From Patescibacteria group bacterium (lineage in GTDB: Bacteria; Patescibacteriota; JAQUNI01), in the NCBI GenBank assembly GCA_028717685.1, contig JAQUNI010000002.1, positions 7,903 through 71,902 of the forward strand: 64,000 nucleotides of DNA. Direction: 5' to 3'. This document shows, in pieces, positions 2-48,810 of this stretch. Below the pieces are notes generated by a model. That model ran no database searches and had not been told where the DNA came from. It saw only the letters and a list, made by a program, of their open reading frames with translations. Within the stretch, counting starts at the first letter, position 1, and every line of letters starts with the position of its first letter. Both the position numbers and the translations under genes were made by a program.

Positions 2-3000
2 GATACTTCGGGCAATGGTAATGACGGGGCGATTAGTGGCGCAGCTTGGAAATCCGCTGCCTCGTGCCACAGCGGAGCGTGTTTGCAGTTTGACGGCACG
101 GATGATTATGTGAGTGTGAATGATTCGCCTGCCTTAAGCTCTACAAACGCCATGACAATATCCGGATGGATTAAAACAAGCTCCAATCAATTATACAAGC
201 ATGTACTTGTGAAAGGTGCTACCCTTATCAATAATGATTACGATTTTAGTTTGTATTTTTCAGGTACTTATTCAGTTAATGTTTATATGAAAGACAGCGT
301 GGGAACACTTGATACCGTTGGTTACAGTTTTTCTTTTGGCGATAACAAATGGCACCATTATGTTGCTATGTTTGATGGCGATTGGTTATATTTATATCTT
401 GACGGAACGTTGGTTGCGTCAAAAGATACGGCATTGACTAACATAAGAGATTCAGCTAATCCGTTTCAGATCGGGGTGGGGGGCAACGGGTATTATTTCA
501 ACGGCTCCATTGATGACGTGCGCATCTACAACTACGCGCGCACTCAAAAGCAAATTATAGAAGATATGAATGCCGACCACCCTGCGGTTGGTTCGCCCGT
601 GGGCAGTTATGCTGGGTATTGGAATTTTGACGAGGGGCAAGGCGATACTGCTTATGACAAATCAATAAATAAAAACAATGGGGACTTGGCTGGCGCTTGC
701 CCAGGGGCTGCTACTTGCCCCACATGGACCACTGCTGGCAAATTCGGCAAAGCATTGTCTTTTGACGGAGGCGATTATTTAACTGTAGCTGATAGTGCAA
801 TATTTAACACAGAATCCTTTGCGGTGTGTGCTTGGGTACGGCCAGCATCTTTTTCTAATTATCAGAGCATACTTGCGAAACAAAGGGCAGGGGATACTTT
901 TGAGCAGTTCGGATTATTAGTGTATAGTTCTGGAGCTGTAGCGCTCCAATTAGGAAATGGCGGAACGGGTGCTTTGGGATCTTTAACTCTTAATACGTGG
1001 GCGCATATATGCGGTTCCACAGACGGGACAACAGGAACGTTGTATATTAATGGTCGAGCTTTGGGTACTGGCACTGATAATGCAACTTATGGCGCAGGTA
1101 AGTCGTTTTATATTGGCTATACTCAATATGGAAGTGGGCGTTATTTTAATGGGCTTATAGATGAAGTTAAATTTTATCCATTTGATTTAAGCCCTGCGGA
1201 AATTAAGGAAGAATTTAACCGTGGCTCTTCGTTAAAATTGGGCGCTTCGGGAACCGAGGCAGATGGCATAACTCCAAGCAACTCGGCTTTGTCAGCTTAC
1301 TGCGTGCCGGGCGATGCTACTTCTTGCGCTGCGCCCATTGCCCATTGGAAAATGGACGAGAAAAAAGATAATACTTGTTCTGGGGGCGTAAATGATGTAT
1401 GTAATACTTCTGGCAATGGTAATGACGGGGCAAATACTGGCGGTCCAGTGTGGAAATCCGCTGCCTCGTGCCATTCTGGCTCCTGCCTGTCCTTTGACGG
1501 GACGGATGATTATGTGAATGTGGCGGATAGTGATAATTTAAGTTTTACGACTGGTTATCCGACCGATACTTCTGCAACTGTCTGCGCTTGGATAAAAGCT
1601 AATTCTTTTTCAGCAAATTCAACTATTGTTAGCAAAGTAGGAAGTTCATACGAATGGGAATTATACAATGTTGCTGGAAGCGGAGTAGGTTTTTGGATGT
1701 TGAGTTCGGGTGGCGCTCCTTATATAGGGAGATATGCTCCATTTCCTTCAACTAATGTTTGGCATTATATCTGTGGAGTATATGATGGGAGTAAAGTGGT
1801 AAGCGGTATTAAAGTTTATATTGATGGAATAAGAAGTGATACAAGTAATGACACATCGGGAACTTATGCGGGTTGCAGTAATACAAATGTGCCAGTTAAT
1901 ATAGGAAGAAGGAATGTGCCGGATTCTTATTTCAATGGCCTCATTGACGATGTCCGCATATACAACTACGTCCGCACTCCAGCGCAAATCGCCTGGGATT
2001 ACAATCGCGGAGCGCCAGTTGGGAGCTGGTCAATGGATTCTGTTGGGGTTTCTGCTTCGCCCGGCACGGCTTTGAATGTTTATGACAGCTCGGGAAAAGC
2101 CAACACGGGCGTAAGCTCGGGCGAAACAATGAATAATGGCACTATTACTGGCGCCACGTGGAAAGACGGCTCTAATTGCAAATACGGCTCTTGCCTGTCT
2201 TTTGACGGGAATGACTATGTAAACGTTGGAAGTGGAGCGAGTTTGCATTTTGCAGGAAGTTTTACGGTTGAAGCGTGGGTTAATATTCCAGTTGCACAAA
2301 CGCACGCTGCAGATAATATGATTGTGGGAGATTATAATGGGCTATGGAAAGGATATAAATTTTCAATTGCTTCTGACTCTAAGGTATTTTTTCAAGTCGG
2401 AAGGCAAAGTGACACTACTATGTGTGGCATGTATTCATCACAAACATTGTCACTTAATACTTGGTATCATGTTGTCGGAGTTTATGATGGAGTTAGGCCA
2501 AATATATACGTTAATGGGGTCAAAACGGAAGGCAATGCTTGTTCTCCAATAGAGGCAGAAGTCTCAAGTACGATTATCGGAAAAGCGCAATGGTACAGTC
2601 AATATTTCAACGGCTCCATTGACAATGTCCGCATCTACAATACCGCCTTAACAGCCACGCAAGTTGCCGCTTTGTATAATAACAACGACCGCTCGGCGGG
2701 CGCGAGCTTGGAAGCTAACTTGGTGGGCGAGTGGCGGCTTGACGAAAACGCAAGTTTGTATGCTGCGGACACCCACTACCAGCGCGTTGGCAAATACGGC
2801 TATGCTATGAACTTTGACGGGAGTAATGATTATGTGGCTATTCCATCTTATACGGTTGATGCAGATACTGGAACAATCGCAGCATGGTTTAAAACATCTG
2901 CAGATTTTTCATCAAATTATAATCAGCTTGGATTTTTATTAGGCAATACTGCTGTAAATTACAGTTATTTAGCTTTACAAGGCAATGGAAGCACAGCATA

Positions 3001-3334
3001 TAGCATAAGAGGTGAAACAAATACAAACGGAGAATTTTTTGCCGCTACTTCAGATATAGTGCCTGTAGGGGCATGGAATCAGATTATTACAACCTTCAAT
3101 AATAAAACAGCAAAAACATACTTAAATGGTATTCTCGTAGATACAGAGACTATCACAAATAGCTTAACTCTCTCTCGTATTAGTGGTCTTACATATCTAA
3201 CAAATGTAACATACTTCAACGGCCTCATCGACGATGTCCGCGTATATAACTACGCTCTAACTCCGTTACAAGTTAAGACGCTATATAACGAGAACTCAGC
3301 TGTTCGGTTGGGACCAACAGAGGGATTACCTTAG
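2..3334 (+). CDS. LamG (concanavalin A-like lectin/glucanase, Laminin_G_3-type) repeat protein; 5' partial, continues upstream of the window
   Basis: The frame is open from the window edge (no stop in 2-82). The first 80 nt repeat the module seen again at 1415-1510. Recurring motifs about every 200-250 aa: W-x-(F/M)DEG, SGNGN-G, CLSFDGTDDYV, YFNG(L/S)IDDVRIYN(Y/T)A. Ends ...VRLGPTEGLP*. Confidence 0.85.
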   Translation, partial: DTSGNGNDGAISGAAWKSAASCHSGACLQFDGTDDYVSVNDSPALSSTNAMTISGWIKTSSNQLYKHVLVKGATLINNDYDFSLYFSGTYSVNVYMKDSVGTLDTVGYSFSFGDNKWHHYVAMFDGDWLYLYLDGTLVASKDTALTNIRDSANPFQIGVGGNGYYFNGSIDDVRIYNYARTQKQIIEDMNADHPAVGSPVGSYAGYWNFDEGQGDTAYDKSINKNNGDLAGACPGAATCPTWTTAGKFGKALSFDGGDYLTVADSAIFNTESFAVCAWVRPASFSNYQSILAKQRAGDTFEQFGLLVYSSGAVALQLGNGGTGALGSLTLNTWAHICGSTDGTTGTLYINGRALGTGTDNATYGAGKSFYIGYTQYGSGRYFNGLIDEVKFYPFDLSPAEIKEEFNRGSSLKLGASGTEADGITPSNSALSAYCVPGDATSCAAPIAHWKMDEKKDNTCSGGVNDVCNTSGNGNDGANTGGPVWKSAASCHSGSCLSFDGTDDYVNVADSDNLSFTTGYPTDTSATVCAWIKANSFSANSTIVSKVGSSYEWELYNVAGSGVGFWMLSSGGAPYIGRYAPFPSTNVWHYICGVYDGSKVVSGIKVYIDGIRSDTSNDTSGTYAGCSNTNVPVNIGRRNVPDSYFNGLIDDVRIYNYVRTPAQIAWDYNRGAPVGSWSMDSVGVSASPGTALNVYDSSGKANTGVSSGETMNNGTITGATWKDGSNCKYGSCLSFDGNDYVNVGSGASLHFAGSFTVEAWVNIPVAQTHAADNMIVGDYNGLWKGYKFSIASDSKVFFQVGRQSDTTMCGMYSSQTLSLNTWYHVVGVYDGVRPNIYVNGVKTEGNACSPIEAEVSSTIIGKAQWYSQYFNGSIDNVRIYNTALTATQVAALYNNNDRSAGASLEANLVGEWRLDENASLYAADTHYQRVGKYGYAMNFDGSNDYVAIPSYTVDADTGTIAAWFKTSADFSSNYNQLGFLLGNTAVNYSYLALQGNGSTAYSIRGETNTNGEFFAATSDIVPVGAWNQIITTFNNKTAKTYLNGILVDTETITNSLTLSRISGLTYLTNVTYFNGLIDDVRVYNYALTPLQVKTLYNENSAVRLGPTEGLP

Positions 3335-3336
3335 GA

Positions 3337-3781
3337 AATGAAAAATGAAAAACTAAAAATGAAAAACGACAAAGAAAAATTTAAAAAGGAATTTAAAGCC
3401 AGAATCTACCACTTTATTTTGCGTTTAGTAAAATTTGTAGATAGCTTGCAAAAAGATAGAAGCTCGCAGGTTTTTGCTAATCAAATGCTTCGAAGCGGCA
3501 CAAGTATTGGCGCTAACTATATTGAAGCCCAAGCTTCAAGCTCTAAAAAAGATTTTGCTAATTTTTTCCACCATTCTTTAAAATCAGCCAACGAAACGAA
3601 GTTTTGGTTAGCATTATGCCGTGATTTAAACAAAGGAGAAAAAAGCCAAGCCGAATCTTTACTGCAAGAGCTTACAGAAATTGCCAATATTTTAGGCTCA
3701 AGCCTGCTTACCTTAAAAGGTAAGAAATGATTTTTTAATTTTAGATTGTGGTTTTTCATTTTTCATTTTCAGTTTTTCATT
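3337..3781. mobile_element. IVS-like cassette: a ~30-bp inverted-repeat pair (aaatgaaaaatgaaaaactaaaaatgaaaaac / gtttttcatttttcattttcagtttttcatt) enclosing the four-helix-bundle gene
   Basis: The left and right arms are reverse complements of each other. The same arm family occurs without cargo at 16395-16559, as a solo arm at 14998-15030, and at the nrdD disruption point (62012-62030). Confidence 0.55.
3338..3730 (+). CDS. Four-helix bundle protein (TIGR02436 / 23S rRNA intervening-sequence protein family)
   Basis: 130-aa ORF with the hallmark motif RSGTSIGANYIEAQASSSKKDFANF...ETKFWL. It lies inside an inverted-repeat cassette (3337-3368 / 3751-3781). The true start may be the internal Met at 3359, because the first codons fall in the left repeat arm. 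Confidence 0.8.
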   Translation: MKNEKLKMKNDKEKFKKEFKARIYHFILRLVKFVDSLQKDRSSQVFANQMLRSGTSIGANYIEAQASSSKKDFANFFHHSLKSANETKFWLALCRDLNKGEKSQAESLLQELTEIANILGSSLLTLKGKK

Positions 3782-3878
3782 TGCAACAATTAAGAATTAA
3801 AAATTTTAGAGAGTGGGCTTCGGCGAGACAGAAGGATTGCCATAAGGAGGTCGTGCGAAAGCGCGACACAAAAAGTTA

Positions 3879-6800
3879 ATGAGAAAAACTTCCTTTTTTA
3901 AAAAAATCATTTTTATCGCAATTGCCATCGGGACCATTACCTCCGGCATTTTTATTATCCGCGCGGCGAGCAATAAAGGCGCAGCGCCTGTGGCGTGGTG
4001 GAAGTTTGACGAAGGGTCGGGGACGAGCGCCTACGACTCCTCGGGCAATGGCAATACCGGCACTCTGACTAATATGGACAATACCGACTGGGTCAACGGC
4101 GAGTTTGGCAGTGCTTTGGACTTTGACGGGAGCAATGATTATGTTAACACTAATACTGATTTCAGCTGGGCTATAGCAGATAGTTTTTCTATTGCTTTTT
4201 GGGTTAATCCTACTTCTGTAACAGGCGGTCAAGGCATAATGGGGAAGGGAGCGGCTGGAGGTTATGGAGATTATAATTGGGAGTGGTCTTTTAAACTTGA
4301 TGGTACCAGCTTAAGTTTTGTTTATTGGAATACTGGCGGCGGCGGTGAAATAGTCCTTGGGTCAACAGTTACTCAAGGCACTTGGGATTATTTTGTTGTT
4401 ACTTACGACCCGACAAACAAAGCAAAACTTTACAAAAATGGTGTTGTTGTATCTACGGATACTAGTATTGCTAGCGCCTTGCAGAATAGAGCTACGCCTA
4501 TGTTAATAGGTCATGCGTATTACAATAGCGGTGTTAATTATTACTTCAATGGCCTTATTGATGATACTCGCGTATACAACCACACCCGCACCGCTGACCA
4601 AATCAAAAACGATTACAATGGAGGCAAGGCAATGTATGTTGGTGCGAAACAGCCTGTCTGCGACACTTCTCCGGCGGATTGCGTGAACAAAGGCTTGGTG
4701 GGTTATTGGGATATGGACCAGATGAACGGCACAACTGCCACGGATAAATCAGGGAATGGGAATACAGGCACATTTGCTAGCAGTCCTGTTTGGACGGGCG
4801 GCATAAAACCATTTAGTGGCGGCAGGGCTGGCGGGGGAGCGTTGCAGTTTGATGGGACGGATGATTATGTGAATGCAGGGCAGGGAAGCAGCTTAAATGG
4901 CCTTACTTCTGTGACATTATCGGCGTGGATTAAGCCTTATGGTTATTCGGCTTCTTATCGGAGCGGGATTATTTCTCGTAGAAGAAGCGGCGGGGCGGCG
5001 GAAGGATTGAACTTTACTATGGGTGGAGCGCTGGAAACGCCATATAAGCTGGCTATTTATGAGGCAGGTGGTGTCGCGTTGTATGCAAATACAGTAATTT
5101 CTCCAAATCAATGGTCTTTTGTTACCGCCACATTATCGGGAACTGACGCTAAAATTTATATTAATGGAGTTTTAGACGCAACTGGCACTGTTTCTTGGAA
5201 TTGGCCAAGCGATGTAAATGTATCAATTGGAGCGGTTTATTCTGGCGTTTATCATTTCAACGGACTTATTGACGATGTTCGCGTCTACAACCGAGCTCTG
5301 TCCGCCGCGGAAATACGGTATCAATACAATCAAGGCGACCCCGTTGCTTATTGGAAAATGGACGAAGGATCGGGGACGAGTGCTTACGACTCCTCGGGTA
5401 ATGGCAATACCGGCACTCTGACTAATATGGACAATACCGACTGGGTCAACGGCGAGTTTGGCACGGCTTTGGACTTTGACGGGAGCAATGATTATGTGGA
5501 AATAGTTGATAATGCATCCTTAGACCCTTCAAACGCAATCACGGTGTCTATGTGGTTTAGGCCAGACCAAACATTAGTAAATTACCAAGGAGTTTTAGGA
5601 AAAGGCGGAGGATCAAGTTTTGAAAAAGGATATGAATTCGCTACAAACAATGACGTGTTTGGATTTTGGATAAATGGAAGTACTAATATGGCTGTAACAA
5701 CTAAACCTGCAAGCGGAGAACTTGCTTTTTGGGTTGGAACATTTGATGGAACACAGATTAAATTATATAAAAATGGAAATTTAGTAAACACTGTAAATTA
5801 TATTGCTACGATTACAGATACTAATCTTCCTTTCCGTATTGGGAGGGTAAGTGAATATGGGGGAAATGATGAGTATACAAAAGGTATGTATGACGATGTC
5901 CGCATATATAACTATGCCCGCACCGCTGACCAAATCAAAAACGATTACAATGGAGGCAAGGCAATGTATGTTGGTGCGAAACAGCCTGTCTGCGACACTT
6001 CTCCGGCGGATTGCGTGAACAAAGGCTTGGTGGGTTATTGGGATATGGACCAGATGAACGGCACAACTGCCACGGATAAATCAGGGAATGGGAATACAGG
6101 CACATTTGCTAGCAGTCCTGTTTGGACGGGCGGCATAAAACCATTTAGTGGCGGCAGGGCTGGCGGGGGAGCGTTGCAGTTTGATGGGAGCGATGATTAT
6201 GTGAGCGGAAGCGGTGTTAATATTGCGAATTCTCCATTTACAATTTCAGCTTGGATTAAAGCAGATCAGTTTAATACGAGACAATTTTTTTCAATAGGGT
6301 CAGTGGGCAGCCTGCGCACGGCAATACATCTGCGTCTTCTATCATCCACTTCATTTTTATTCGGGCTGTATAGCGATGATTTGACTGTAACTATGGCGGA
6401 TATGTCTAACCGCTGGACGCATATTGTTGTAACTTTTGACAGTTCTTTTACGCAGAGTGTCTATCAGGATGGCGTGTTTGTTAACTCCAGAACTGCCGGG
6501 GGCTATTTTACCGGTAATACTAATTGGAATATTGGAAGATGGATGACTACTGAATATTTTGACGGCTTCATTGACGATGTCCGCGTCTACAACCGAGCGT
6601 TGTCCGCCGCGGAAATACGGTATCAATACAATCAGGGTGACCCGATTGCTCATTGGTCCTTTGATGAAGGCTCGGGATTATCAGCTTATGATAAAAGCGG
6701 CAATAGCAATACCGGCACTCTGACTAATATGGACGCCGCAACCGACTGGGTCAACGGCGAGTTTGGCAGTGCGTTGGATTTTGATGGGAGTAATGATTAC

Positions 6801-7982
6801 GTGAGCATAAACGGAAACCCAGACCTTTTCCGCGGTTCTAGAACATACGAACTATGGTTCTATCCCCATTTTAATTCTGATAGCGGGGTTAGTAATTTTA
6901 TGTTTTCAATATACCTCAATGATGGTAATGAAATGAGTCTTTATAATTATAGCAACGGCTTTTATGGATTCGCATATAAAGCTGGAGGAAGCGCTAATTA
7001 TATATCAGCAGGGAGTTTTACGGCTAATAATTGGTACCACATTGTTGCCACTTTTGACGACGACACCAATGAAATTAAAGTTTATCATAATGGAGTTTTA
7101 CAAAATCAAGGCACTGAAAGCAACGCAATTGTTGCTGGAACAACATACACTAAAATCGGTATGTATGTTTTGGACGGTTGGTTCAATGGTCTCATAGACG
7201 ATGTCCGCATATACAATTACGCTCGCACCGCTGACCAAATCAAAAACGACTATAATGCCGGTAAGGCGCTATATATTGGCGCGAAACAGCCGGACTGCGA
7301 CACTTCCCCGGGTGACTGCGTGAATAAAGGTCTTGTAGGGTATTGGGATATGGATCAGATGACTGGCACGACTGCGACTGATAAATCGGGCAATGGGAAC
7401 ACCGGCACTTTGACCAGTGGTCCCCTTTGGGCACAGGGCGTTCAGCCGTTTCAGGGTGGCAAAATTGGCGGGGGAGCTCTGCAGTTTGATGGCACGGATG
7501 ATTATGTGGGTGTGACACGAAACGCTAATTTAGAACCCGCAAGTGCTTTTTCCATAGAAACTTGGGTCAAAGTTAGCGCTTTTCAGGATTCAGAATGGAA
7601 TACAAGCCAAATAATATCAAAATATGGCGGAAATTATAAGGGGTATATTTTATCGTTGAATAAAGTTGGTTCAAGCTGGTATTTTTATTTTACCACATGT
7701 ACGCCCAGTACTTGTTACGGCACATCACAACCTACTCAAGCTGTGTCGCTGGGGCAATGGTATCATTTAGTAGCTGTCTTCCAAAATGGTTCTCCTAACT
7801 TAATGTATGTCAACGGGGTACTGGTTGGGCAAAGTGCTAATGCTGCCATTACTCACGATACTGCACAAAATCTATTTATCGGCAAGGCGGGATGGTATTC
7901 ATCTTTCTTCAACGGCACTATTGACGATGTCCGCGTCTACAACCGAGCTCTGTCTCCCGCTGAAATCCGCTATCACTATTAA
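3879..7982 (+). CDS. LamG repeat surface protein with an N-terminal signal anchor; its C-terminal 27 codons continue in the +1 frame (7981-8061)
   Basis: N-terminus MRKTSFFKKIIFIAIAIGTITSGIFII is a hydrophobic signal/TM. At least 5 LamG-like modules (WxFDEGSGTSAYDSSGNGNTGT...FDGSNDYV...FNGLIDDVRVYNRALS). Internal repeats identical at nucleotide level: 4585-4857 = 5917-6189. Strong RBS-like aaggagg at 3844-3850. Confidence 0.85.
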   Translation: MRKTSFFKKIIFIAIAIGTITSGIFIIRAASNKGAAPVAWWKFDEGSGTSAYDSSGNGNTGTLTNMDNTDWVNGEFGSALDFDGSNDYVNTNTDFSWAIADSFSIAFWVNPTSVTGGQGIMGKGAAGGYGDYNWEWSFKLDGTSLSFVYWNTGGGGEIVLGSTVTQGTWDYFVVTYDPTNKAKLYKNGVVVSTDTSIASALQNRATPMLIGHAYYNSGVNYYFNGLIDDTRVYNHTRTADQIKNDYNGGKAMYVGAKQPVCDTSPADCVNKGLVGYWDMDQMNGTTATDKSGNGNTGTFASSPVWTGGIKPFSGGRAGGGALQFDGTDDYVNAGQGSSLNGLTSVTLSAWIKPYGYSASYRSGIISRRRSGGAAEGLNFTMGGALETPYKLAIYEAGGVALYANTVISPNQWSFVTATLSGTDAKIYINGVLDATGTVSWNWPSDVNVSIGAVYSGVYHFNGLIDDVRVYNRALSAAEIRYQYNQGDPVAYWKMDEGSGTSAYDSSGNGNTGTLTNMDNTDWVNGEFGTALDFDGSNDYVEIVDNASLDPSNAITVSMWFRPDQTLVNYQGVLGKGGGSSFEKGYEFATNNDVFGFWINGSTNMAVTTKPASGELAFWVGTFDGTQIKLYKNGNLVNTVNYIATITDTNLPFRIGRVSEYGGNDEYTKGMYDDVRIYNYARTADQIKNDYNGGKAMYVGAKQPVCDTSPADCVNKGLVGYWDMDQMNGTTATDKSGNGNTGTFASSPVWTGGIKPFSGGRAGGGALQFDGSDDYVSGSGVNIANSPFTISAWIKADQFNTRQFFSIGSVGSLRTAIHLRLLSSTSFLFGLYSDDLTVTMADMSNRWTHIVVTFDSSFTQSVYQDGVFVNSRTAGGYFTGNTNWNIGRWMTTEYFDGFIDDVRVYNRALSAAEIRYQYNQGDPIAHWSFDEGSGLSAYDKSGNSNTGTLTNMDAATDWVNGEFGSALDFDGSNDYVSINGNPDLFRGSRTYELWFYPHFNSDSGVSNFMFSIYLNDGNEMSLYNYSNGFYGFAYKAGGSANYISAGSFTANNWYHIVATFDDDTNEIKVYHNGVLQNQGTESNAIVAGTTYTKIGMYVLDGWFNGLIDDVRIYNYARTADQIKNDYNAGKALYIGAKQPDCDTSPGDCVNKGLVGYWDMDQMTGTTATDKSGNGNTGTLTSGPLWAQGVQPFQGGKIGGGALQFDGTDDYVGVTRNANLEPASAFSIETWVKVSAFQDSEWNTSQIISKYGGNYKGYILSLNKVGSSWYFYFTTCTPSTCYGTSQPTQAVSLGQWYHLVAVFQNGSPNLMYVNGVLVGQSANAAITHDTAQNLFIGKAGWYSSFFNGTIDDVRVYNRALSPAEIRYHY

Positions 7983-8061
7983 TCAGGGCAGACCCATTGC
8001 TCATTGGTCTTTTGACGGAGGCGCTGCTTTCCGCCTCGGCTCGAACGAAGGATTACCTTAA
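7981..8061 (+). other. Frameshifted C-terminal tail of the second LamG gene (NQGRPIAHWSFDGGAAFRLGSNEGLP*), reachable only by a +1 shift at ~7980
   Basis: Removing one T in tatTaat at 7977-7983 restores ...IRYHYNQGRPIAHWSFDGG...NEGLP*. This matches both the repeat consensus (IRYQYNQGDPIAHWSFDEG) and the C-terminal ...RLG(P/S)(T/N)EGLP* of the first LamG gene. Confidence 0.6.
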
Positions 8062-8062
8062 A

Positions 8063-8550
8063 GTAATTTTTAATTTTTGATTTGTAATTTTTAACTAATT
8101 TTTATTGAGTTAACGAATTATTGATATGGAGCAAAAGCAGATTAATAATGTTAATTATGATTTGGAAGAAAAGTTTGAAAAATTGGGCGAAAAGATTATT
8201 ATTTTAGTAAAAAAAGCTTGTAAAAATCCTGTTGCATTTCCTTTAATTAATCAGCTAATTCGCTCTGGCACTTCAATAGGAGCCAACTATATGGAGGCAA
8301 ATGGAGCATCAAGTAAAAAGGATTTTAAGAACAAAATCCATATCTGCAAGAAAGAAGCCAAAGAAACAATGCACTGGCTTCGAATGTTGGCAATAGCTGA
8401 TGAAAATATAAAAGACGAATGCAGGATATTGTGGCAAGAAGTTCAGGGTTATGCCAAAATGTTTTCCAAAATTATTTCCACAATGCAAAACAATAAAAAT
8501 TAATACGTTAAGAATTAGTTAAAAATTAAAAATTAAGAATCAAAAATTTA
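8063..8550. mobile_element. Second IVS-like cassette: an inverted-repeat pair (agtaatttttaatttttgatttgtaatttttaac / gttaaaaattaaaaattaagaatcaaaaattta) enclosing the four-helix-bundle gene
   Basis: The arms are imperfect reverse complements. A related solo arm occurs at 63115-63160. Confidence 0.5.
8126..8503 (+). CDS. Four-helix bundle protein (TIGR02436 / 23S rRNA IVS protein family), paralog of 3338-3730
   Basis: Motif IRSGTSIGANYMEANGASSKKDFKNKIHICKKEAKETMHWL. Flanked by the inverted repeats 8063-8096 and 8518-8550. Confidence 0.8.
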   Translation: MEQKQINNVNYDLEEKFEKLGEKIIILVKKACKNPVAFPLINQLIRSGTSIGANYMEANGASSKKDFKNKIHICKKEAKETMHWLRMLAIADENIKDECRILWQEVQGYAKMFSKIISTMQNNKN

Positions 8551-8611
8551 GCCTTGTCTTGTGTAGGCTCTTTTTTTTTGTTAAACTAAAATAAACTAGG
8601 CTAAGAAAACA

Positions 8612-11600
8612 ATGCTTTTTAAAAAGGCTCCTCCCAAGCCCAATTTTCCAGAGATGGAAAGAAAAATCTTGGAATATTGGGAGAAAAATAAAATTTTTGA
8701 AAAAAGTTTAAAGAAACCCTTATCCAAAGGTGATTTTGTGTTTTATGAAGGACCGCCAACAGCGAATGGTAAACCCGGCGTGCATCACGTTGAAGCGCGG
8801 GCGTTTAAAGATTTATTTCCTCGTTATAAGACTATGCAAGGTTACAGGGTGGAACGCAAAGCGGGCTGGGATACGCACGGCCTGCCTGTGGAATTGGAGG
8901 TGGAGAAGAGTTTAGGTTTTTCGGGAAAACGCGACATTGAAAAATATGGCATAGAAAAATTCAACAAAAAATGCGCGGCGTCAGTTTGGAAATATAAAGA
9001 AGAGTGGGAAAAATTAACCAAGCGAATGGGATATTGGGTTGATTTGGAACATCCTTATATTACTTGCTCTAATGAATACATTGAGTCGGTTTGGTTTATT
9101 TTGAAGAAGATTTGGGAGAAAGGGCTTTTGTATCAAGGTCACAAAGTCGTGCCTTATTGCCCAAGATGCGGAACAGCCTTGTCTTCGCACGAAGTAGCGC
9201 AGGGGTATAAAAAGGTAAAGGAGGCAAGTGTGTATGTTAAATTAAAAGTTAAAAGTCAAAAGTTAAAAGTCAAAAGTAAAAATCAAAATTCAGAAATAGG
9301 AGAAACCCCCCTAACCCCCCTTGTCAGGGGGGAAGGCAAGAATGTCTATTTTTTAGCGTGGACGACGACGCCGTGGACATTGCCGGGGAATGTGGCGCTG
9401 GCGCTGGGAGCGGAGATTGGTTATGTTTTAGTGAAGTCTGGAATTAAATTAAAAATTAAAAATGAAAAATTAAAAACCACAATCAAAAATGAAAAAATTA
9501 AAGTTGCTTCGCAACTTTTGAAGGAAAAAGAGGGATATTTAGTTTTAGCTAAAAAGAGGTTGGAAGTTTTGGATGGGGAATATGAGATTATTCAAGAATT
9601 CAAAGGCAAGGATTTAGCAGGGATTGAATATGAGCCCTTGTATCCGGTTTTTTCGGGAGTGGAAAATAGAAACGAAGAAACCCCCCCAACCCCCCTTGTC
9701 AGGGGGGCGAAGAAAGAAGAAAAAGAAAAAGCTTACCATACAGTTTTAGCCGATTTTGTGACTACGGAAGAGGGGACGGGGATTGTGCATACAGCGGTGA
9801 TGTATGGCGAGGATGATTACGCGTTAGGGGAAAAATTGGGTTTGCCGATGATGCATACGGTGGATTTGCAGGGGAGATTTAAACTCAAATCTCAAAACTC
9901 AAATCTCAAAACTACAACTCAAATTTCAAAATTTAAAGTTGCTTCGCAACTTTTAGATAAAATAGAAGGAAAATTTGTTAAGGACGCGGAGAAGGATATT
10001 GTTGAGGATTTGCGAAAAAGGGATTTGCTTTATAAATCTGAATTATACGAGCATGATTATCCCTTTTGCTGGCGGTGCAAAACACCTTTGCTTTACTACG
10101 CGAAAAAAAGCTGGTTTATCGCGATGAGTAAGCTGCGTGATAAATTAGTGGAAAATAATGAGAAGATAAACTGGATTCCGAAATATTTAAAAACTGGCCG
10201 TTTTGGCAAGTGGATTGCCGAGGCAAAGGAGTGGGCAGTATCGAGGGAGAGGTACTGGGGCACTCCGATGCCGATATGGATTTGCAAAAAATGCGGAGAG
10301 GTGAAGGTGATTGGGAGTAGGGAAGAATTTTATTCCGTCATTGCGAGCGGAGCGAAGCAATCGCCAGCAAGCAAAACCGAAGCTAGAAATGTCGGAACAT
10401 TGTCTTTACTAAATGGAGATTGCCGCGGTCGTCCCTCGACAGGCTCGGGATTCCCTCGCAATGACGACATTCTAATGGATTTACATCGTCCATATATTGA
10501 TGAGATTGTTCTTAAATGTAAGTGTGGTGGAGAAATGCGGCGGGTGCCGGAAGTTTTGGATTGCTGGTTTGATTCGGGGGCGATGCCATTCAGCCAAAAC
10601 CATTGGCCGTTTACTGACAGTTCCTCCCCTCTAAAGGGGAGGGCAGGAGAGGTTGTGAAGGGAGAGCCGAAACCCCCCCTAATCCCCCTTGTCAGGGGGG
10701 AGGGAAATCCTCCGAAATTATTTCCTGCCGATTTTATTTGTGAAGCCGTGGATCAAACAAGGGGCTGGTTTTACACGCTCCTCGCGATTTCCACACTTTT
10801 GGATTTTGGAGCGCCCTATAAAAATGTAATTTCCTTAGGCCACGTTTTGGATAAAAATGGCCAAAAAATGAGCAAATCTAGGGGAAATATTGTAGAGCCT
10901 TTCAAGGCTTTGGACGAATTTTCCGCTGATTCTATCCGCTGGTTTTTTTACACCGTAAATCGGCCGCAGGAATCTAAGAATTTTGACCCCGCGATCTTGC
11001 GCGACATTGTCTCGCGGTTTATTTTGACTTTATGGAATAGTTATTCTTTCTTTTTAACCTATGCGAGTATTGATCAACCCAAGCTTTCTAATGTCTTTGC
11101 GAGCGGAGCCCAAAAAGGCGGAGCGAAGCAATCTCTTCGCAATGACATTGCTGGAAACATTCTTGATCAATGGATTCTTTCTCGTTTAGCTGAATTGAAC
11201 AATAATATTGTTCAGTATCTCGATCGTTATGATGTCTTAAAAGCCGCGAAAGAAATTGAACAATTTGTTGATGATTTATCAAACTGGTATATCAGGCGGT
11301 CGCGCCGTAGATTTTGGAAAAGTGAAAATGATCAAGATAAAAACCAAGGATACAATACATTGCATTCTGTTTTAGTCTTACTATGCGAAATGTTGGCGCC
11401 TTTTATGCCTTTCCTAACGGAAAATATTTATCGTAATTTAACGGGCAAGGAGTCGGTCCATTTAGCCAAATTTCCCAAGATTTCATCCGAAGGAACTGAC
11501 CAAGGTATTTTGGAGCAGATGGATATTACGCGTAAGATTGTAACTTTAGGGCTGAATTTACGGGCGCAAGCAAAGATAAAGGTTCGGCAGCCGTTAGATA

Positions 11601-12064
11601 AGTTAAAAGTTAAAAGTGAAAAGTTAAAAGTTATAACTCAAAACTCAAAACTTTTAAATTTAATGAGAGAAGAATTGAATATTAAAGAGATAAAGGTTGT
11701 ATCGGAAATCAAGGAAGCGGGTGATTTGCTCGTGGCTGAAGATGGGGATTTGAAAGTGGCTTTGAATATAAAGATTACCCCAGAATTGAAGCGGGAAGGT
11801 ATTGTCCGCGATTTAGTGCGGGTGGTTCAAGAAATGAGAAAGAAAGCGGGTTTAGAGGTTTCGGATCGGATTGAGCTTTCCTTATACAGTGAAGATGGAG
11901 AGATTCAAAAAGCAATTCAAGAATGGCAGGATTATATTCAAAAAGAAACTTTGGCAGAAAGGTTAGGAGAGATTTGGGGTGGGATAGATGAGGTAGAGAA
12001 AGTGAAAATAGAAGGCAAAGAGGTGCAGATTAGTATAAGAAATTGTTCTAATTGTTCTAATTAA
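8612..12064 (+). CDS. ileS: Isoleucine--tRNA ligase (type 2 IleRS) carrying several in-frame repeat insertions
   Basis: Class I aaRS signatures PPTANGKPGVHHV (HIGH-like), WTTTPWTLPGNVALA, KMSKSRGN. N-terminus NFPEMERKILEYWEKNKIFEKS. Low-complexity and palindromic insertions are described under findings. Confidence 0.92.
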   Translation: MLFKKAPPKPNFPEMERKILEYWEKNKIFEKSLKKPLSKGDFVFYEGPPTANGKPGVHHVEARAFKDLFPRYKTMQGYRVERKAGWDTHGLPVELEVEKSLGFSGKRDIEKYGIEKFNKKCAASVWKYKEEWEKLTKRMGYWVDLEHPYITCSNEYIESVWFILKKIWEKGLLYQGHKVVPYCPRCGTALSSHEVAQGYKKVKEASVYVKLKVKSQKLKVKSKNQNSEIGETPLTPLVRGEGKNVYFLAWTTTPWTLPGNVALALGAEIGYVLVKSGIKLKIKNEKLKTTIKNEKIKVASQLLKEKEGYLVLAKKRLEVLDGEYEIIQEFKGKDLAGIEYEPLYPVFSGVENRNEETPPTPLVRGAKKEEKEKAYHTVLADFVTTEEGTGIVHTAVMYGEDDYALGEKLGLPMMHTVDLQGRFKLKSQNSNLKTTTQISKFKVASQLLDKIEGKFVKDAEKDIVEDLRKRDLLYKSELYEHDYPFCWRCKTPLLYYAKKSWFIAMSKLRDKLVENNEKINWIPKYLKTGRFGKWIAEAKEWAVSRERYWGTPMPIWICKKCGEVKVIGSREEFYSVIASGAKQSPASKTEARNVGTLSLLNGDCRGRPSTGSGFPRNDDILMDLHRPYIDEIVLKCKCGGEMRRVPEVLDCWFDSGAMPFSQNHWPFTDSSSPLKGRAGEVVKGEPKPPLIPLVRGEGNPPKLFPADFICEAVDQTRGWFYTLLAISTLLDFGAPYKNVISLGHVLDKNGQKMSKSRGNIVEPFKALDEFSADSIRWFFYTVNRPQESKNFDPAILRDIVSRFILTLWNSYSFFLTYASIDQPKLSNVFASGAQKGGAKQSLRNDIAGNILDQWILSRLAELNNNIVQYLDRYDVLKAAKEIEQFVDDLSNWYIRRSRRRFWKSENDQDKNQGYNTLHSVLVLLCEMLAPFMPFLTENIYRNLTGKESVHLAKFPKISSEGTDQGILEQMDITRKIVTLGLNLRAQAKIKVRQPLDKLKVKSEKLKVITQNSKLLNLMREELNIKEIKVVSEIKEAGDLLVAEDGDLKVALNIKITPELKREGIVRDLVRVVQEMRKKAGLEVSDRIELSLYSEDGEIQKAIQEWQDYIQKETLAERLGEIWGGIDEVEKVKIEGKEVQISIRNCSNCSN
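10337..10465. repeat. 129-bp (43-codon) palindromic-ended element inserted in frame in ileS (gtcattgcgag ... ctcgcaatgac termini)
   Basis: 11-bp terminal inverted repeats. The length is divisible by 3 and it starts on a codon boundary. A shorter relative occurs at 11097-11146 in ileS and a related sequence at 23040-23150 in the tatD-leuS spacer. Confidence 0.55.
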
Positions 12065-12217
12065 GCTAATTGATCTAAATAAATCCCAATGCCTAAATCC
12101 CAATAAACAAAATCAATCATTAAATTTGATCATTGGGTAGTTCAAGATTTGGTCATTATTTAGAATAACCTGCCTACCGGCAGGCGGGTTAGAGTAATTA
12201 GAATAATTAGAACAATT
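12040..12217. repeat. MITE-like inverted-repeat element (aattgttctaattgttctaatt family) in the ileS-recO spacer
   Basis: Left arm 12040-12068 (supplies the ileS C-terminus ...RNCSNCSN*). Right arm 12196-12217 is its reverse complement. Internal hairpin cctgcctaccggcagg. A sibling element lies at 17566-17716. Confidence 0.5.
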
Positions 12218-12222
12218 CTCTA

Positions 12223-13020
12223 ATGTTTTATTCTTCCAAAACCAGAGGTATCATTATTAAACGCATAAAATATGGTGAAGCAGACCGTGTTTTGACGGTT
12301 TTTACTGAAGATTTAGGCAAAATTCAGGTGTTGGCGCGGGGAATTCGCCGCGGAAAAAGCAAGTTGGCAGGGATTTTAGAGCTTTTTAACTTGGTGCAGT
12401 TAGAGCTCGTCCGCGGCAGAAATTTAGATGTGGTGATTGGAGCGCATGCTTTAAATAATTTTTTAGGTTTAAAAACTGACTTCAAGAAAGTATCCTTTGC
12501 CCATTTTTCAGCCGAATTTATTGATAAGTTTACGGAAGAAAGAGGGACGGATAGGAGGCTTTACGCTCTTTTTCGTGATTTATTTTTAAATCTGGATAAA
12601 TTCGCGGGTAAAAAGGATTATTTATGGGCTTTGATTTTAGATGAATGGCGGATGTTGGAATATTTGGGGGTAATGCCGCGGCTTTATCATTGCGCGGGGT
12701 GCGGCTTATCTCTTTCGGATGCGAAAATTTTGTCTTTAGGCGAGGGGGGATTGTATTGCGCAAATTGCGCGTCGCGAGCAGGGCTTTCCGATCCTGTTCG
12801 CGAGGAAGTCGTGGAGATTTTATTGTCTTGCGGGGGGCGATATGTGCGCCAACCCGCAGGAATCGGGCGGACACGCTGGTCCGCTCCTACGGGAGATTTG
12901 GAGCAAGCAGGTTTAGTGTTGGCGTATTTTTTAAGCGCGAGTTTAGCCCCGCGAATAAAATCATGGCATTTTTTGAAAAAATATCAAGATTATGGGAAGA
13001 CCCGAACGCCGGTCCATTAG
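12223..13020 (+). CDS. recO: DNA repair protein RecO
   Basis: N-terminal OB-fold-like region (GIIIKRIKYGEADRVLTVFTEDLGKI). Zinc-finger-like CAGCG...CANC. Confidence 0.8.
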   Translation: MFYSSKTRGIIIKRIKYGEADRVLTVFTEDLGKIQVLARGIRRGKSKLAGILELFNLVQLELVRGRNLDVVIGAHALNNFLGLKTDFKKVSFAHFSAEFIDKFTEERGTDRRLYALFRDLFLNLDKFAGKKDYLWALILDEWRMLEYLGVMPRLYHCAGCGLSLSDAKILSLGEGGLYCANCASRAGLSDPVREEVVEILLSCGGRYVRQPAGIGRTRWSAPTGDLEQAGLVLAYFLSASLAPRIKSWHFLKKYQDYGKTRTPVH

Positions 13021-13095
13021 ATTGCCGGGGTATGATTATTCTGAAAGAACGGGGTCTAATCCATGGTATAATTGTGATTTTTATAATGCAGGGGT

Positions 13096-16365: not shown

Positions 16366-16394
16366 TAAAATTATTTTTCAGAATGGTAAAGATT

Positions 16395-16559
16395 AAAAAT
16401 GAAAAGTGAAAAATGAAAAACCATAATCTAAAATTAAAAAATTTTAAAGAATACTTTTTTTATCAATTTTTACTGCTTTTAGATGGTAAGAACCTGGGGT
16501 TTAAATTCTTTTTAGATTTTTCATTGTGATTTTTCATTTTTCACTTTCAGTTTTTCATT
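16395..16559. repeat. Cargo-less copy of the four-helix-bundle cassette inverted repeats (MITE-like, 165 bp)
   Basis: Left arm aaaaatgaaaagtgaaaaatgaaaaacc, right arm gatttttcattgtgatttttcatttttcactttcagtttttcatt. No ORF between them. Confidence 0.55.
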
Positions 16560-16625
16560 AAATTTTTTTAAATCTTCAACCATTAATCATAAATCATTTA
16601 TTCTCTAGAATAATAAGTTTAATTT

Positions 16626-17718: not shown

Positions 17719-18987
17719 ATGATGTTCTCAAAAAATATTTTAAAAAATGGCTTGCGCGTTGTGACTGTTCCAATGCAAAACACAAAGACAGTGACGGTTT
17801 TGGTGGTCGTGGAAACTGGTTCCAAATATGAGACGAAAAAAAACAATGGAATTTCCCATGTTTTAGAGCATATGTTTTTTAAGGGCACGCAGAGGCGGCC
17901 TAATACACAGATACTCGCTTCGGAAATTGACAAGATTGGCGGGGAACACAATGCTTTTACTTCTGAAGAGTTTACCGGTTACTATGCCAAAGCGGCTTCG
18001 CGCCACGCGCGTTTGCTCTTTGATTTGATCTCTGATATGTTTTTGAATTCTAAACTGGCAGAACAGGAGTTATCTCTGGAAAAGAACGTGATTTGCGAAG
18101 AGATTAATATGTATCAAGACATACCGATGCATTATGTGGGTTATTTGTGGGAGCAGTTGCTTTATGGCGATCAACCCGCGGGCTGGCTCACTATCGGCAC
18201 CAAGGAGAATGTTCAAGGTTTTTCCAGGGAGGATTTGGTGAATTATTTGAAGAAAAGTTATGTCGCGGCTAACACCATTATTATCGTTGCTGGCGATATT
18301 GATTCACAAAAAGCTTTAACAGAGGCAAATAATTTTTTTGGTTCTACGCGCGTTGCTCCCAAACCGCGGAAAGTAAAAGTTCTGGAAAAACAGAACGAGC
18401 CCCGAATTTTGCTCCAAACCAAAAAAACCGACCAGAGTCATTTTTGCCTTGGCGTGCGGGGTTATTCTGTCCATCATCCCGATTATTATCCTCTGGAAGT
18501 TTTAACCGCGGTTTTGGGGGGAGGAATGAGTTCTCGTTTATTTATCGCAGTTCGGGAAAGAAGAGGTCTTGCTTATTATGTCCATACCAACTTTGAAAGC
18601 TATACCGATCACGGTTATCTTGTTACGCAGGCAGGCGTGGATAATAATAACACAGAGGAGGCAGTAAAAGTGGTTTTGAGTGAACTTAGGAAGGCAAGAG
18701 AACAGAAGGTTCAAGAGAAAGAGCTGAATAAGGCGAAAGAATACCTGAAGGGCAAATTGACCTTGGATTTAGAAACTTCTGATGAATACGCCTTCTGGCT
18801 GGCAGGGCAAGAGGTGGTCCGAGGAGAAATGTTGACCGAAGAGCAAATTTTTCAGAAAATTGATGCCGTGAGCAGCGTAGACGCGCAAAGGGTGGCGAAT
18901 GATATCTTTAGAAATAATAAACTGAATCTGGCAGTAATTGGACCGCAGAAGGAAAAGGAGGGATTAAAGCAGGTTCTGAATTTATGA
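17719..18987 (+). CDS. M16-family zinc metallopeptidase (insulinase/pitrilysin-like)
   Basis: Inverted zinc-binding motif HVLEHMFFKGT (HxxEH). ~420 aa. Confidence 0.8.
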   Translation: MMFSKNILKNGLRVVTVPMQNTKTVTVLVVVETGSKYETKKNNGISHVLEHMFFKGTQRRPNTQILASEIDKIGGEHNAFTSEEFTGYYAKAASRHARLLFDLISDMFLNSKLAEQELSLEKNVICEEINMYQDIPMHYVGYLWEQLLYGDQPAGWLTIGTKENVQGFSREDLVNYLKKSYVAANTIIIVAGDIDSQKALTEANNFFGSTRVAPKPRKVKVLEKQNEPRILLQTKKTDQSHFCLGVRGYSVHHPDYYPLEVLTAVLGGGMSSRLFIAVRERRGLAYYVHTNFESYTDHGYLVTQAGVDNNNTEEAVKVVLSELRKAREQKVQEKELNKAKEYLKGKLTLDLETSDEYAFWLAGQEVVRGEMLTEEQIFQKIDAVSSVDAQRVANDIFRNNKLNLAVIGPQKEKEGLKQVLNL

Positions 18988-19138
18988 AAATTTTCAATTT
19001 CTAATTTTCAATTTTTATTAAATTTCTAATAATTTAATTTTCAAACAGTGAATAGAAACTTTTGTTGTGCGGTTATGAAGCTTTGAAAATTTAAAAATTG
19101 GGATTTGATTGAAAATTGGGATTTGAAAATTGAAAATT
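18988..19138. repeat. MITE-like inverted-repeat element (ttttcaatttctaattttcaattt family)
   Basis: Left arm 18988-19031, right arm 19085-19138 (its reverse complement). Same family at 32348-32462, 42064-42201 and 48811-48976, with a solo arm at 33117-33160. Confidence 0.55.
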
Positions 19139-20212
19139 AACCCCAAATCTATGCCTAAAAAACAAGTTATCTTGAATACCTCTTCAATTGTGATTGTAAA
19201 AATTGTTCTAGTTCTGCTAGGACTAGTCTTTTTGTATTTCGTGCGAGATGTAGTGATGGTTTTATTTACGGCGGTCGTGATTTCCGCCGCGCTTAATCCG
19301 ATCGTGGATTGGCTGCAAAAAAAGCGTATTCCGCGGACCTTAAGCGTACTTTTAATCTATACTGTCCTTCTTAGTATTGTTGTTCTATCCATCTATCTTT
19401 TAATTCCGCCGATTGTCACTCAGGTCAAAGATTTAGCGAATCAATTCCCTAATCTTTATGAGCAGCTGGCGCAGAAAGGGATGAAGTTGAAGGCTTTCTC
19501 GGCGCGCGAAGATCTTCTAAGTAATATCCAAAAAGTTGTTTCTTCGTTGGGTAATAATATTACAGGAGCGACGCGCAGTATCTTTGGGACTTTAGGCACC
19601 ATTTTTGGCAGTTTTATTTCCGCTTTTGTAATTTTGGTTTTATCTTTCTATTTAACCGTGCAGAAGGATGCCTTGAAGAGTTTTATTCGAGCGATTACGC
19701 CAGCACGTCGGCAAAAGCATATTATTGAACTTGTGGATCGCGTCCAGCATAAGATTGGGCAGTGGCTGTCTGGCCAGATTTTTTTATGCTTTGTGGTAGG
19801 TATCCTGACATTTTTAGGATTAACACTTCTAGGAGTGAAGTACAGCTTAGTTTTAGCGCTTTTCGCGGGGTTGATTGAGATTATTCCTTACGTGGGTCCA
19901 GTTTTAGGAGGACTGCCGGCTGTATTTTTAGCTTTGACCCAATCGCCAATTTTAGCTTTGTTCGTAATTATCCTTTTCTTTGTTGTCCAGCAGATAGAAA
20001 ATCATATCTTGGCGCCCAAGATAATGCAAAAAACGGTGGGTTTAAACCCGATTGTAGTTATTTTAGCTTTACTCGCGGGCGGCAAGCTCGCCGGGATTTT
20101 GGGGATGATTTTGGCTATCCCTGTCGCGACCGTGGTTACCGTTTTTGTACAGGATTATATGGAGCTTAAAAATAGAGCGCAAATTGCTAAAAAACCTAAA
20201 ATAAATGTTTAG
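19130..20212 (+). CDS. AI-2E family transporter (PerM/UPF0118 membrane protein)
   Basis: ~8 predicted TM helices. C-terminal motif LLAGGKLAGILGMILAIPVATVV. 360 aa. Confidence 0.75.
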   Translation: MKINPKSMPKKQVILNTSSIVIVKIVLVLLGLVFLYFVRDVVMVLFTAVVISAALNPIVDWLQKKRIPRTLSVLLIYTVLLSIVVLSIYLLIPPIVTQVKDLANQFPNLYEQLAQKGMKLKAFSAREDLLSNIQKVVSSLGNNITGATRSIFGTLGTIFGSFISAFVILVLSFYLTVQKDALKSFIRAITPARRQKHIIELVDRVQHKIGQWLSGQIFLCFVVGILTFLGLTLLGVKYSLVLALFAGLIEIIPYVGPVLGGLPAVFLALTQSPILALFVIILFFVVQQIENHILAPKIMQKTVGLNPIVVILALLAGGKLAGILGMILAIPVATVVTVFVQDYMELKNRAQIAKKPKINV

Positions 20213-22875: not shown

Positions 22876-23213
22876 TTGCGGATTGCGCATTGCGGATTAT
22901 GAAGATCAAAAAATTTGAAGAATTACCAATTTGGAAACTCAGTTTACCTTGAATCGCGAAATGTATCGTCTATTAACGAGGGAGTCCCTCACCTTTTGTA
23001 AAAGATGGGGGACGACCGAAGCCCGCCCTCCTCGCACTCCCGCGAAGCTTGCGAGCGGGCAGGCAATCTCCTAAATCTGTATAAATACAGCTCGATGAGA
23101 TTGCTTCGTCGTCCGCTTAGGGCGGACTCCTCGCAATGACAAAATAAATTTCGTAATTCAAGGTTGAAAAGTAATGCGCAATTCGAAATTGATGAATTAA
23201 ATAATTTATTGAA

Positions 23214-32346: not shown

Positions 32347-32474
32347 AAATTTATAATTTCTAATTTTAAATTTTCATTAAATTTTCAATGATATAATTTC
32401 TAAACGGGGTTTGAAAATTAATTCATTGATAATTTAATAGAAATTAGGAATTGAAAATTGCAAATTTTTTGGCT

Positions 32475-33116: not shown

Positions 33117-33274
33117 TTTCTAATTTTCAATTTTCATTAAATTTCCAATTTTAAAATTTTCAAACATGTTGTAAAAAATAAAAGTTCAAAAATTATTTCG
33201 TTAGAAATCTAATAAAGAGCTAAAATTTTCGTGCCTTTAGGGTGGACGAACCTAGGGCGAAAAATTATAAATTT

Positions 33275-42059: not shown

Positions 42060-42063
42060 ACAA

Positions 42064-48809: not shown

Positions 48810-48810
48810 G

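Follow-up and report, generated by a model that had tools for sequence, protein, structure and literature searches.

In the 64,000-nt stretch of a Patescibacteria group bacterium contig analysed here (hereafter, the window), the isoleucyl-tRNA synthetase gene ileS carries eight extra in-frame segments, and we favor, with a probability of roughly 0.7, the hypothesis that the gene has been colonised at eight tolerant surface loops by at least four kinds of short repeat DNA. These colonisers would be period-7 tandem arrays, a ~58-nt arm of cassettes carrying a PF05635 gene, a C-run/G-run hairpin, and a 129-nt element that has terminal inverted repeats (TIRs) and resembles a MITE (miniature inverted-repeat transposable element). 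Under this hypothesis, the inserts would be translated as disordered loops that are tolerated, not needed, and selection would act only as a filter, i.e., for a length that is a multiple of three, for the absence of stop codons and for a permissive site, leaving the amino-acid sequence essentially free. Fresh insertions, some nested in older ones, together with slippage inside the arrays and deletion mediated by hairpins, would probably drive the turnover of the inserts.

The host gene is a single open reading frame (ORF; 8612-12064, + strand) for an essential enzyme, a type 2 isoleucyl-tRNA synthetase (IleRS) of 1150 aa, which is identical to a product annotated as IleRS in a metagenome-assembled genome of a Patescibacteria group bacterium and finds its best match among solved structures in PDB 8c8w (E = 5e-238). 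The nearest homologue by protein search is a 1252-aa Doudnabacteria protein, P0002 (79% over aligned columns), the next six show 63-70% aligned-column identity, and most Patescibacteria IleRS measure 916-1000 aa. Relatives were compared through orthologous loci, every one of them chosen around ileS (L001, L002/L003, L004, and L127, with L002 and L003 identical and from two assemblies), across which the synteny of LamG, ileS, recO, and CLIPPER is kept. Over 897 core codons, the dN/dS ratio of ileS is 0.17 against L001, the closest relative, and ~0.08 against L002 and L004, and the HIGH-like and KMSKS regions are intact; the ratios indicate that the core is under purifying selection and the gene functional. 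The ratio against L001 also bears out the view, put forward in a preliminary description of this DNA, that the host protein stays functional.

Analysis of column occupancy among 77 aligned IleRS revealed eight query-specific segments (aa 217-242, 277-305, 350-365, 425-445, 583-619, 676-700, 827-842, and 1006-1010), which sum to ~175 aa, or ~15% of the protein. The same eight loops comprise only 2-14 aa in 69 more distant Patescibacteria IleRS, and the alignment to 8c8w is gapped at the insert positions. The earlier proposal that such segments are insertions and not native IleRS sequence therefore holds in both comparisons. By alignment to solved IleRS, four of the sites fall in the CP1/editing domain, which the preliminary description had named, along with the zinc knuckle, as a possible location. 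The remaining four lie after the CxxC zinc knuckle, before the second Rossmann half, in a loop belonging to the helical anticodon-binding domain, and at the C-terminal junction. An AlphaFold model of the protein computed from the 77 sequences (pLDDT 82.6, pTM 0.79) has pLDDT below 50 only in the six stretches given with the sites below; that is, the inserts coincide with low-confidence stretches of the predicted fold at six of the eight sites. Judging from alignment and reading frame, the inserts are lineage-specific and in frame, and the loops that hold them would be insertion-tolerant and on the surface, as follows.

9244-9340, + strand: site 1, aa ~217-243, at the start of CP1; (AAAAGTY)x7 at 9244-9292, then the C-run unit AACCCCCCTAACCCCCCTTGTCAGGGGGG at 9304-9332; gap relative to 8c8w; pLDDT <50 at 224-231.
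9440-9526, + strand: site 2, aa 277-305, CP1; ~58-nt heptamer arm at 9446-9502 and hairpin AAAGTTGC-TTC-GCAACTTT at 9500-9518; pLDDT <50 at 280-304.
9659-9715, + strand: site 3, aa 350-368, in the CP1 loop that follows EPLYPVF; one C-run unit by itself at 9679-9707; site unoccupied in L002 and L004; pLDDT <50 at 352-371.
9881-9953, + strand: site 4, aa 424-447, CP1; (AAACTCA)x7 at 9881-9931 and hairpin AAAGTTGC-TTC-GCAACTTT at 9935-9953; fold z = -3.76.
10336-10466, + strand: site 5, aa 576-618, following the CxxC zinc knuckle; MITE-like 129-nt element with 12-bp TIRs CGTCATTGCGAG / CTCGCAATGACG; pLDDT <50 at 583-620; common to L001.
10622-10714, + strand: site 6, aa 671-701, between HWPF and FPADF; composite; pLDDT <50 at 671-696.
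11090-11149, + strand: site 7, aa 827-846, in a loop of the helical anticodon-binding domain; shorter relative (60 nt) of the TIR element, GTCTTTGCGAG...CTTCGCAATGAC; z = -2.05; pLDDT <50 at 831-842.
11600-11661, + strand: site 8, aa ~997-1016; palindromic heptamer array, (AAAAGTT)n and then the inverse (AACTCAA / AACTTTT)n, in arms of 30-31 nt that are 70-74% complementary.

Sites 2, 4, and 8 (period-7 arrays, with small hairpins) are additional to those described earlier, as are the period-7 array in the left part of site 1 and a second hairpin at 10623-10642. Half of the insert sites hold heptamer-array elements, which had gone unrecognised in the earlier description. The composite at site 6 consists of this inverse-type hairpin, CCTCCCCT-ctaa-AGGGGAGG, with a GGAGAGGTT tail, followed by a spacer and by a C-run unit at 10671-10700; a diverged homologous composite occupies site 6 in L004. 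Candidate junction peptides across the inserts include SEIGETPLTPLVR, VIASGAKQSPASK, and GEPKPPLIPLVR.

The C-run/G-run hairpin unit has the consensus AACCCCCCT-nnn-CCCCCCTTGTCAGGGGGG. The preliminary description had counted three copies in ileS, two of which (9315-9332 and 9690-9707) are exact copies of CCCCCCTTGTCAGGGGGG, an 18-mer with no match in 100 shuffles, while the third spans 10683-10700, not 10685-10700, and has one mismatch. Every copy has another C-run before it (gaaacccccctaa, gaaacccccccaa, and gaaaccccccctaa), as claimed; the translations are ETPLTPLVRGEG, ETPPTPLVRGAK, and KPPLIPLVRGEG, only the first of which equals the peptide given earlier exactly. An identical 29-mer, AACCCCCCTAACCCCCCTTGTCAGGGGGG, is read as TPLTPLVRG in the window, in L001, and at site 7 of L127, and as NPPNPPCQGG at site 2 of L127, with the third forward frame containing TAA. 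One 29-mer is thus read in two frames and, therefore, the inserts are DNA elements, not peptide modules. A peptide search with a 50-aa concatenate of hairpin-unit peptides gave no candidates.

A scan of one genome per species found the hairpin unit in at least 120 stretches, the cross-phylum matches being picked by the 18-mer alone. Among the matches listed, the hosts include Nitrospinota, Poribacteria, Beta- and Gammaproteobacteria, Desulfuromonadales, Omnitrophota, Chloroflexota, and Patescibacteria, together with six viral contigs; the copies outside Patescibacteria lie mostly in short open stretches; the upstream C-run is 93% C across 152 copies; and an inverse-type hairpin (C3+ TGAYAA G3+, ...CCCCTGAYAAGGGGAGGNNGGGAGGGGTT) follows within 90 nt downstream in 42% of copies, paired inverse hairpins often being 13-52 nt apart. 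Because the C-run is conserved and the inverse hairpin recurrent, the full form of the element is an inverted hairpin pair with AACCCC...GGGGTT ends, of which site 6 holds both halves in permuted order. An exact 31-mer scan of metagenomes recovered only the L001 contig and one more ileS, and is too strict to give a copy number.

The second GC-rich family is the 129-nt element of site 5 (fold -43.7 kcal/mol, z = -2.35). Its earlier placement at 10337-10465, as 43 codons starting on a codon boundary, holds; its TIRs are real, and are 12 bp long and perfect (10336-10347 / 10455-10466), not 11 bp. The shorter relative proposed at 11097-11146 is also real, although better placed at 11090-11149, i.e., 60 nt or 20 codons on a codon boundary. 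A related sequence in the tatD-leuS spacer, likewise claimed before, is connected through its termini and right arm.

23040-23142, + strand: diverged relative of the TIR element, intergenic, in the tatD-leuS spacer; -39.8 kcal/mol, z = -3.54.

The element is low-copy: it occurs at site 5 here, at the same site in L001, as a second full L001 copy just 5' of the ileS start, and as diverged relatives. Its 12-bp termini recur in the L001 copies and in L134, and a ~90-nt element in an unrelated GC-rich viral contig shares both its left and its right arm. Both GC-rich families occur in unrelated phyla. The TIR core 9-mer was not enriched in ~0.9 Mb of loci from other phyla, and a GC-island scan for further elements was too noisy. 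The flanks of the 129-nt element, TTATTCC / GACATTC in the window and TTATAAT / GAAAAAA for the upstream copy in L001, show no obvious duplication, there being no clean empty site for comparison, and neither the window nor any fetched locus yielded an autonomous parent element sharing its ends. Three 1-nt indels in a span of 27 nt separate the window from L001 at site 5; together they restore the frame and alter the peptide (CRGRPSTGSGFPRNDD vs. CRVVPRGLGTPRNDD). Such compensating indels are what selection leaves behind when it keeps a frame open but does not act on the sequence. When the 43-aa peptide of site 5 was run through a full HMMER search of 1.84 billion protein representatives, no counterpart came back, only one irrelevant repeat protein; hence, the 129-nt element does not represent a coding module in wide circulation. 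Stronger conservation of site 5 than of its flanks was considered and discarded, the local core being 95-100% identical. Rfam 15 yielded only a tRNA at gathering score in the window and nothing credible at E <= 1 in 8000-12300.

The heptamer families extend well beyond ileS. Tandem Repeats Finder reported ~42 period-7 arrays of many different units in the 64 kb, mostly intergenic (24 within the non-coding 13% of the window), and those deep inside genes were in ileS, leuS, and metS only; such arrays in L001, L002, and L004 were in ileS, with a single case in metS and one weak case in each of CLIPPER and tgt. On average, 31% of the six frames of intergenic arrays are open, and the five longest (53-57 nt) have at most one open frame in six, four of them none; at ileS sites 1, 4, and 8, exactly one of six frames is open, which is the used one. 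The ~58-nt arm has a non-repetitive tail, ...GAAAAATGAAAAACCACAATCTAAAATTAAAAAAT, and the copy at site 2 matches 3730-3782, 16392-16443, and 24307-24359 at 87-89% identity (52-53 nt aligned). These copies belong to the first, third, and fourth of the features below; PF05635 is the four-helix-bundle protein of 23S rRNA intervening sequences.

3333-3790, + strand: PF05635 cassette with the gene at 3338-3730 and ~58-nt inverted arms that match the site 2 arm of ileS best, the right one 87-89% and the left one 80% (over 50 nt) identical to the site 2 arm.
8060-8548, + strand: PF05635 cassette with the gene at 8126-8503 and inverted heptamer arms at 8063-8095 and 8513-8548, directly upstream of ileS.
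16385-16570, no strand: gene-less inverted arm pair, ~60 nt apart, between a class II synthetase gene and the next gene; partner arm 82% over 56 nt.
24307-24359, + strand: solo ~58-nt arm in frame inside leuS, in a frame that differs from that of the ileS copy; adds ~14 aa relative to Thermus thermophilus LeuRS.

With the arm found in different frames in ileS and leuS, as well as in intergenic and cassette copies, the inserts are therefore DNA-level elements. The gene-less pair looks like a MITE-like derivative of a PF05635 cassette, judging from its arms. The position of the cassettes varies among the loci, being 5' of ileS in the window and L001, 3' of it in L127, and after CLIPPER in L002. 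A (GGGGATA)n-like array in L001 lies at 5920-5965, upstream of a 186-aa PF05635 gene, and another at 6270-6320, in frame inside that gene; arrays therefore colonise cassette genes too. In-frame period-7 arrays of leuS are at 23902-23933, 24307-24359, and 25170-25205, and that of metS at 21748-21772 (peptides KFSIFNFQFSI, EIKNEKLKIKNHNLKFKN, SGIRNQESGTRN, and KLRIANCE); in comparison with T. thermophilus LeuRS, the 23902 and 25170 arrays overlay native segments of equal length.

Six AT-rich intergenic palindromes of ~120-150 nt (18987-19139, 32346-32467, 33106-33181, 42063-42201, 48810-48977, and 63109-63250) are also heptamer-built, with a T-rich arm followed by an A-rich arm, and lie at gene ends; they may act as terminators in both directions or be MITEs. 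For this organism, an independent assembly from Logan (L125) stops exactly at the 32346 palindrome. Two GC-rich, hairpin-forming intergenic segments lie upstream of 54185-55384 (54014-54080) and of nrdD, 59998-62025 (59891-59953); the latter sits after nrdR (59313-59798), and neither segment has an Rfam match at gathering score. The two very large LamG (Laminin_G_3) proteins encoded at 83-3334 and 3879-7982 have internal ~1.3-kb repeats of up to 97% identity (4559-4858 vs. 5891-6190), and both of their genes are free of the small repeat elements; no in-gene heptamer arrays were found in LamG genes, which reach 7.5 kb.

The contents of the ileS loops differ strongly between relatives. In the codon alignment, the same eight loops are filled with different elements in each genome: the core of the window's ileS is 93-100% identical to that of L001 in 60-nt windows, and identity is ~40% at seven of the eight sites. 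Shared insert content is limited to site 5 with L001 and to the site 6 composite with L004, and relatives carry other families at these sites, e.g., CHAEF...LKQVQDD hairpins, (ATTGCGG)n arrays, and a VGADPCVCP/GRTHGSAPT palindrome. From the one close orthologue, we infer that loop turnover would be much faster than point substitution. Two blocks in the C-terminal part of ileS (11691-11780 and 11961-12005) align to L001 without gaps at 45-53% identity between flanks of 92-97%, which suggests recombinational replacement, as judged from the alignment, rather than insertion.

A candidate mobiliser is present in L001, where an extra gene (11512-12249) between recO and CLIPPER matches PF01797 Y1_Tnp at 25.6 bits (cut-off 23) and has the HLH and NYYEH motifs; positions 12992-13045 of the window keep its first 18 codons (MGRPERRSIRLPGYDYSD) at 94% identity. 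HUH transposases act on single-stranded hairpins and, because of this, the Y1/HUH gene is a plausible mobiliser of the GC-rich families. Mobilisation of GC-rich palindromes in trans by such an IS200/RAYT-like transposase is, nonetheless, speculative. The recO gene of the window has an in-frame GC-rich palindrome at 12830-12902 (…GRTRWSAPTG…), of the same family as one in the L001 Y1 gene.

Several results weigh against colonisation by filtered insertion as set out above. The preliminary description had called the 129-bp element dispersed; dispersal within this genome is so far unsupported for the GC-rich elements, the hairpin unit being found in ileS only in the window. In the four related loci (<=5 edits), 3/3, 6/6, and 8/10 copies are in ileS, the other two at the C-terminus of recO and none intergenic. 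The total of ~20 copies in 16.6 kb of ileS vs. 2 in ~110 kb of other DNA is a concentration that random insertion plus filtering does not predict. Similarly, the near-confinement of deep in-gene arrays to class I synthetase genes suggests targeting, or a function beyond tolerance. The compared loci provided no clean empty-vs.-filled site with a target duplication; the Y1 gene of L001 is flanked, and interrupted in frame, by the GC-rich VGADPCVCP/GRTHGSAPT palindrome and not by the units of ileS; translation of the inserts is taken from the maintenance of the frame only; and the host DNA examined is the 64-kb window, i.e., part of the genome.

Alternatively, the loops might be hypervariable cassettes whose contents are deliberately exchanged by a process that is directed to a site or structure and confined to class I synthetase genes. 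Candidates would be HUH transposition aimed at hairpins, gene conversion with repeats as donors, and recombination among alleles of ileS. Such a process would fit the replacement of seven of the eight sites at only ~5% core divergence, the ~60-fold higher density of the hairpin unit in ileS than in its flanks across five loci, the deep in-gene heptamer arrays that are almost only in IleRS, LeuRS, and MetRS genes in four genomes, the PF05635 cassettes adjoining ileS in three of the four, and the ungapped divergent blocks at 11691-11780 and 11961-12005, which point to recombination. However, no reverse transcriptase, template repeat, or donor array was found in any locus, and the contents are generic repeats that also occur intergenically or in other phyla. 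Further, few genes other than ileS were sampled, all loci being ileS-centred, and frequent insertion, once screened by selection, can look like hot spots; hence, we regard exchange of this kind as quite improbable. The related view that surface loops of class I synthetase genes in this clade, ileS above all, are fixed landing pads, where pan-bacterial hairpin repeats and heptamer arrays would replace one another far more quickly than point mutations arise, through a targeted, structure-directed process rather than by filtered random selfish insertion, is in our assessment unlikely as well; HUH transposases would possibly drive such a process, or it would have a link to the PF05635 cassettes nearby. 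An intein, an intron, and a diversity-generating retroelement were considered and rejected, given that splicing motifs, reverse transcriptase, and template repeats are lacking and the inserts are generic repeats.

For sites 1, 4, and 8, it is also conceivable that the arrays expanded in situ by replication slippage of native Lys-rich K-x-K codons. Distant IleRS already have KFKxK at site 1 and KLxI at site 8, the arrays abut native K-x-K codons, and period-7 arrays of varied units are ubiquitous (~42 in 64 kb). This hypothesis appears doubtful, though not implausible, considering that the non-repetitive part of the site 2 arm (AAAAACCACAATCAAAAATGAAAAAATT) is 87-89% identical to intergenic and cassette copies, that an identical hairpin follows at sites 2 and 4, and that slippage cannot account for the GC-rich units. 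It is far harder to argue that some inserts have been exapted to serve IleRS and are retained by positive selection, with Lys-rich peptides (KLKVKS / IKLKIKNEKLK) as tRNA-binding appendages or mRNA hairpins as pausing or regulatory signals. The A-rich arms of ileS are always in the Lys-coding orientation, and the site 5 element is kept in the window and L001 and the site 6 composite in the window and L004, as exaptation would predict. Yet the peptides are not conserved (frame-shifted stretches at site 5, different frames used), the closest relative has other inserts at seven of the eight sites, the model predicts disorder for the inserts, and the orientation bias is explained by the stop codons and hydrophobic peptides of the T-rich strand, all of which makes a role of this kind very improbable. 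Finally, the segments might be removed by RNA processing or ribosomal bypass, or be artefacts of assembly; the elements do form hairpins, and repeats do break assemblies, e.g., the Logan contig that ends at the 32346 palindrome. This we consider extremely unlikely, since the inserts are stop-free and frame-keeping in five independent orthologue assemblies, the indels at site 5 compensate each other, L002 equals L003 across two assemblies, and excision would abolish the constraint on the reading frame.

According to PMC10969869, which cites Ogata 2000 and 2002, Rickettsia palindromic elements (RPEs) are characterised by palindromic repeats that sit in frame within housekeeping genes. The ileS inserts resemble RPEs in being short palindromes in frame in a housekeeping gene of a reduced genome that would be read as extra peptide at fold-compatible positions. 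They differ in phylum and, probably, in sequence, in belonging to several unrelated families (including period-7 arrays of 25-60 nt), in occupying eight sites and ~15% of the protein in one gene with near-complete replacement between close relatives, and in the concentration of the GC-rich units in ileS as opposed to a spread over many genes. Judged in the 64 kb, the spread over unrelated genes and spacers that marks RPEs is seen for the heptamer arm, whereas the hairpin unit is restricted to ileS. The likeness to Rickettsia elements drawn in the preliminary description therefore holds for behaviour, i.e., palindromic repeats in frame in a working gene, and the phenomenon is broader than described there.

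Other known systems share individual features with these repeats. Repetitive extragenic palindromes (REPs) are extragenic by definition. As in REP/REPIN-RAYT systems, the GC-rich units are imperfect, G+C-rich hairpins of 20-30 nt, often in inverted pairs, and a Y1_Tnp gene is present in L001; unlike in those systems, the copies of this clade are inside ileS or recO and not extragenic, and the L001 Y1 gene, of which only a remnant is in the window, is not flanked by ileS units. The 129-nt element is similar to MITEs such as Correia, ERIC, and Nezha in its perfect 12-bp TIRs, lack of coding capacity, long hairpin, and several copies; it differs from them in that neither a target-site duplication nor a parent insertion sequence was found and in its very low copy number in the DNA examined. 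The short tandemly repeated repetitive (STRR) heptamers and small dispersed repeats that Elhai et al. (2008; cited in PMC5861425 and PMC3116915) are said to have described from heterocystous cyanobacteria are reportedly mainly intergenic. Going by description, the varied tandem heptamers with adjacent hairpins at sites 1, 2, and 4 are like these, although here they are in Patescibacteria and in frame in synthetase genes. Lastly, PF05635 genes between long inverted arms recall 23S rRNA intervening sequences, with solo arms in ileS and leuS; the cassettes here, unlike those sequences, are in the spacers of protein genes and not in rRNA. In the literature, of which our coverage was incomplete, we found no account of such inserts in Patescibacteria or of either GC-rich family.

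In conclusion, the inserts of ileS represent an RPE-like phenomenon in a new lineage that is unusual in density and turnover, and extend selfish DNA inside proteins from Rickettsia to the Candidate Phyla Radiation. The case is an extreme one, with ~15% of an essential enzyme repeat-derived and the contents nearly all replaced at ~95% core identity, and it identifies two small palindromic repeat families common to many bacterial phyla. For marker genes of Patescibacteria, inserts of this kind swell and garble protein alignments, phylogenies, and structure predictions; they also give rise to spurious ORFs and cause assemblies to break. If it is true genome-wide, their concentration in class I synthetase genes would be a lead to a targeting mechanism.

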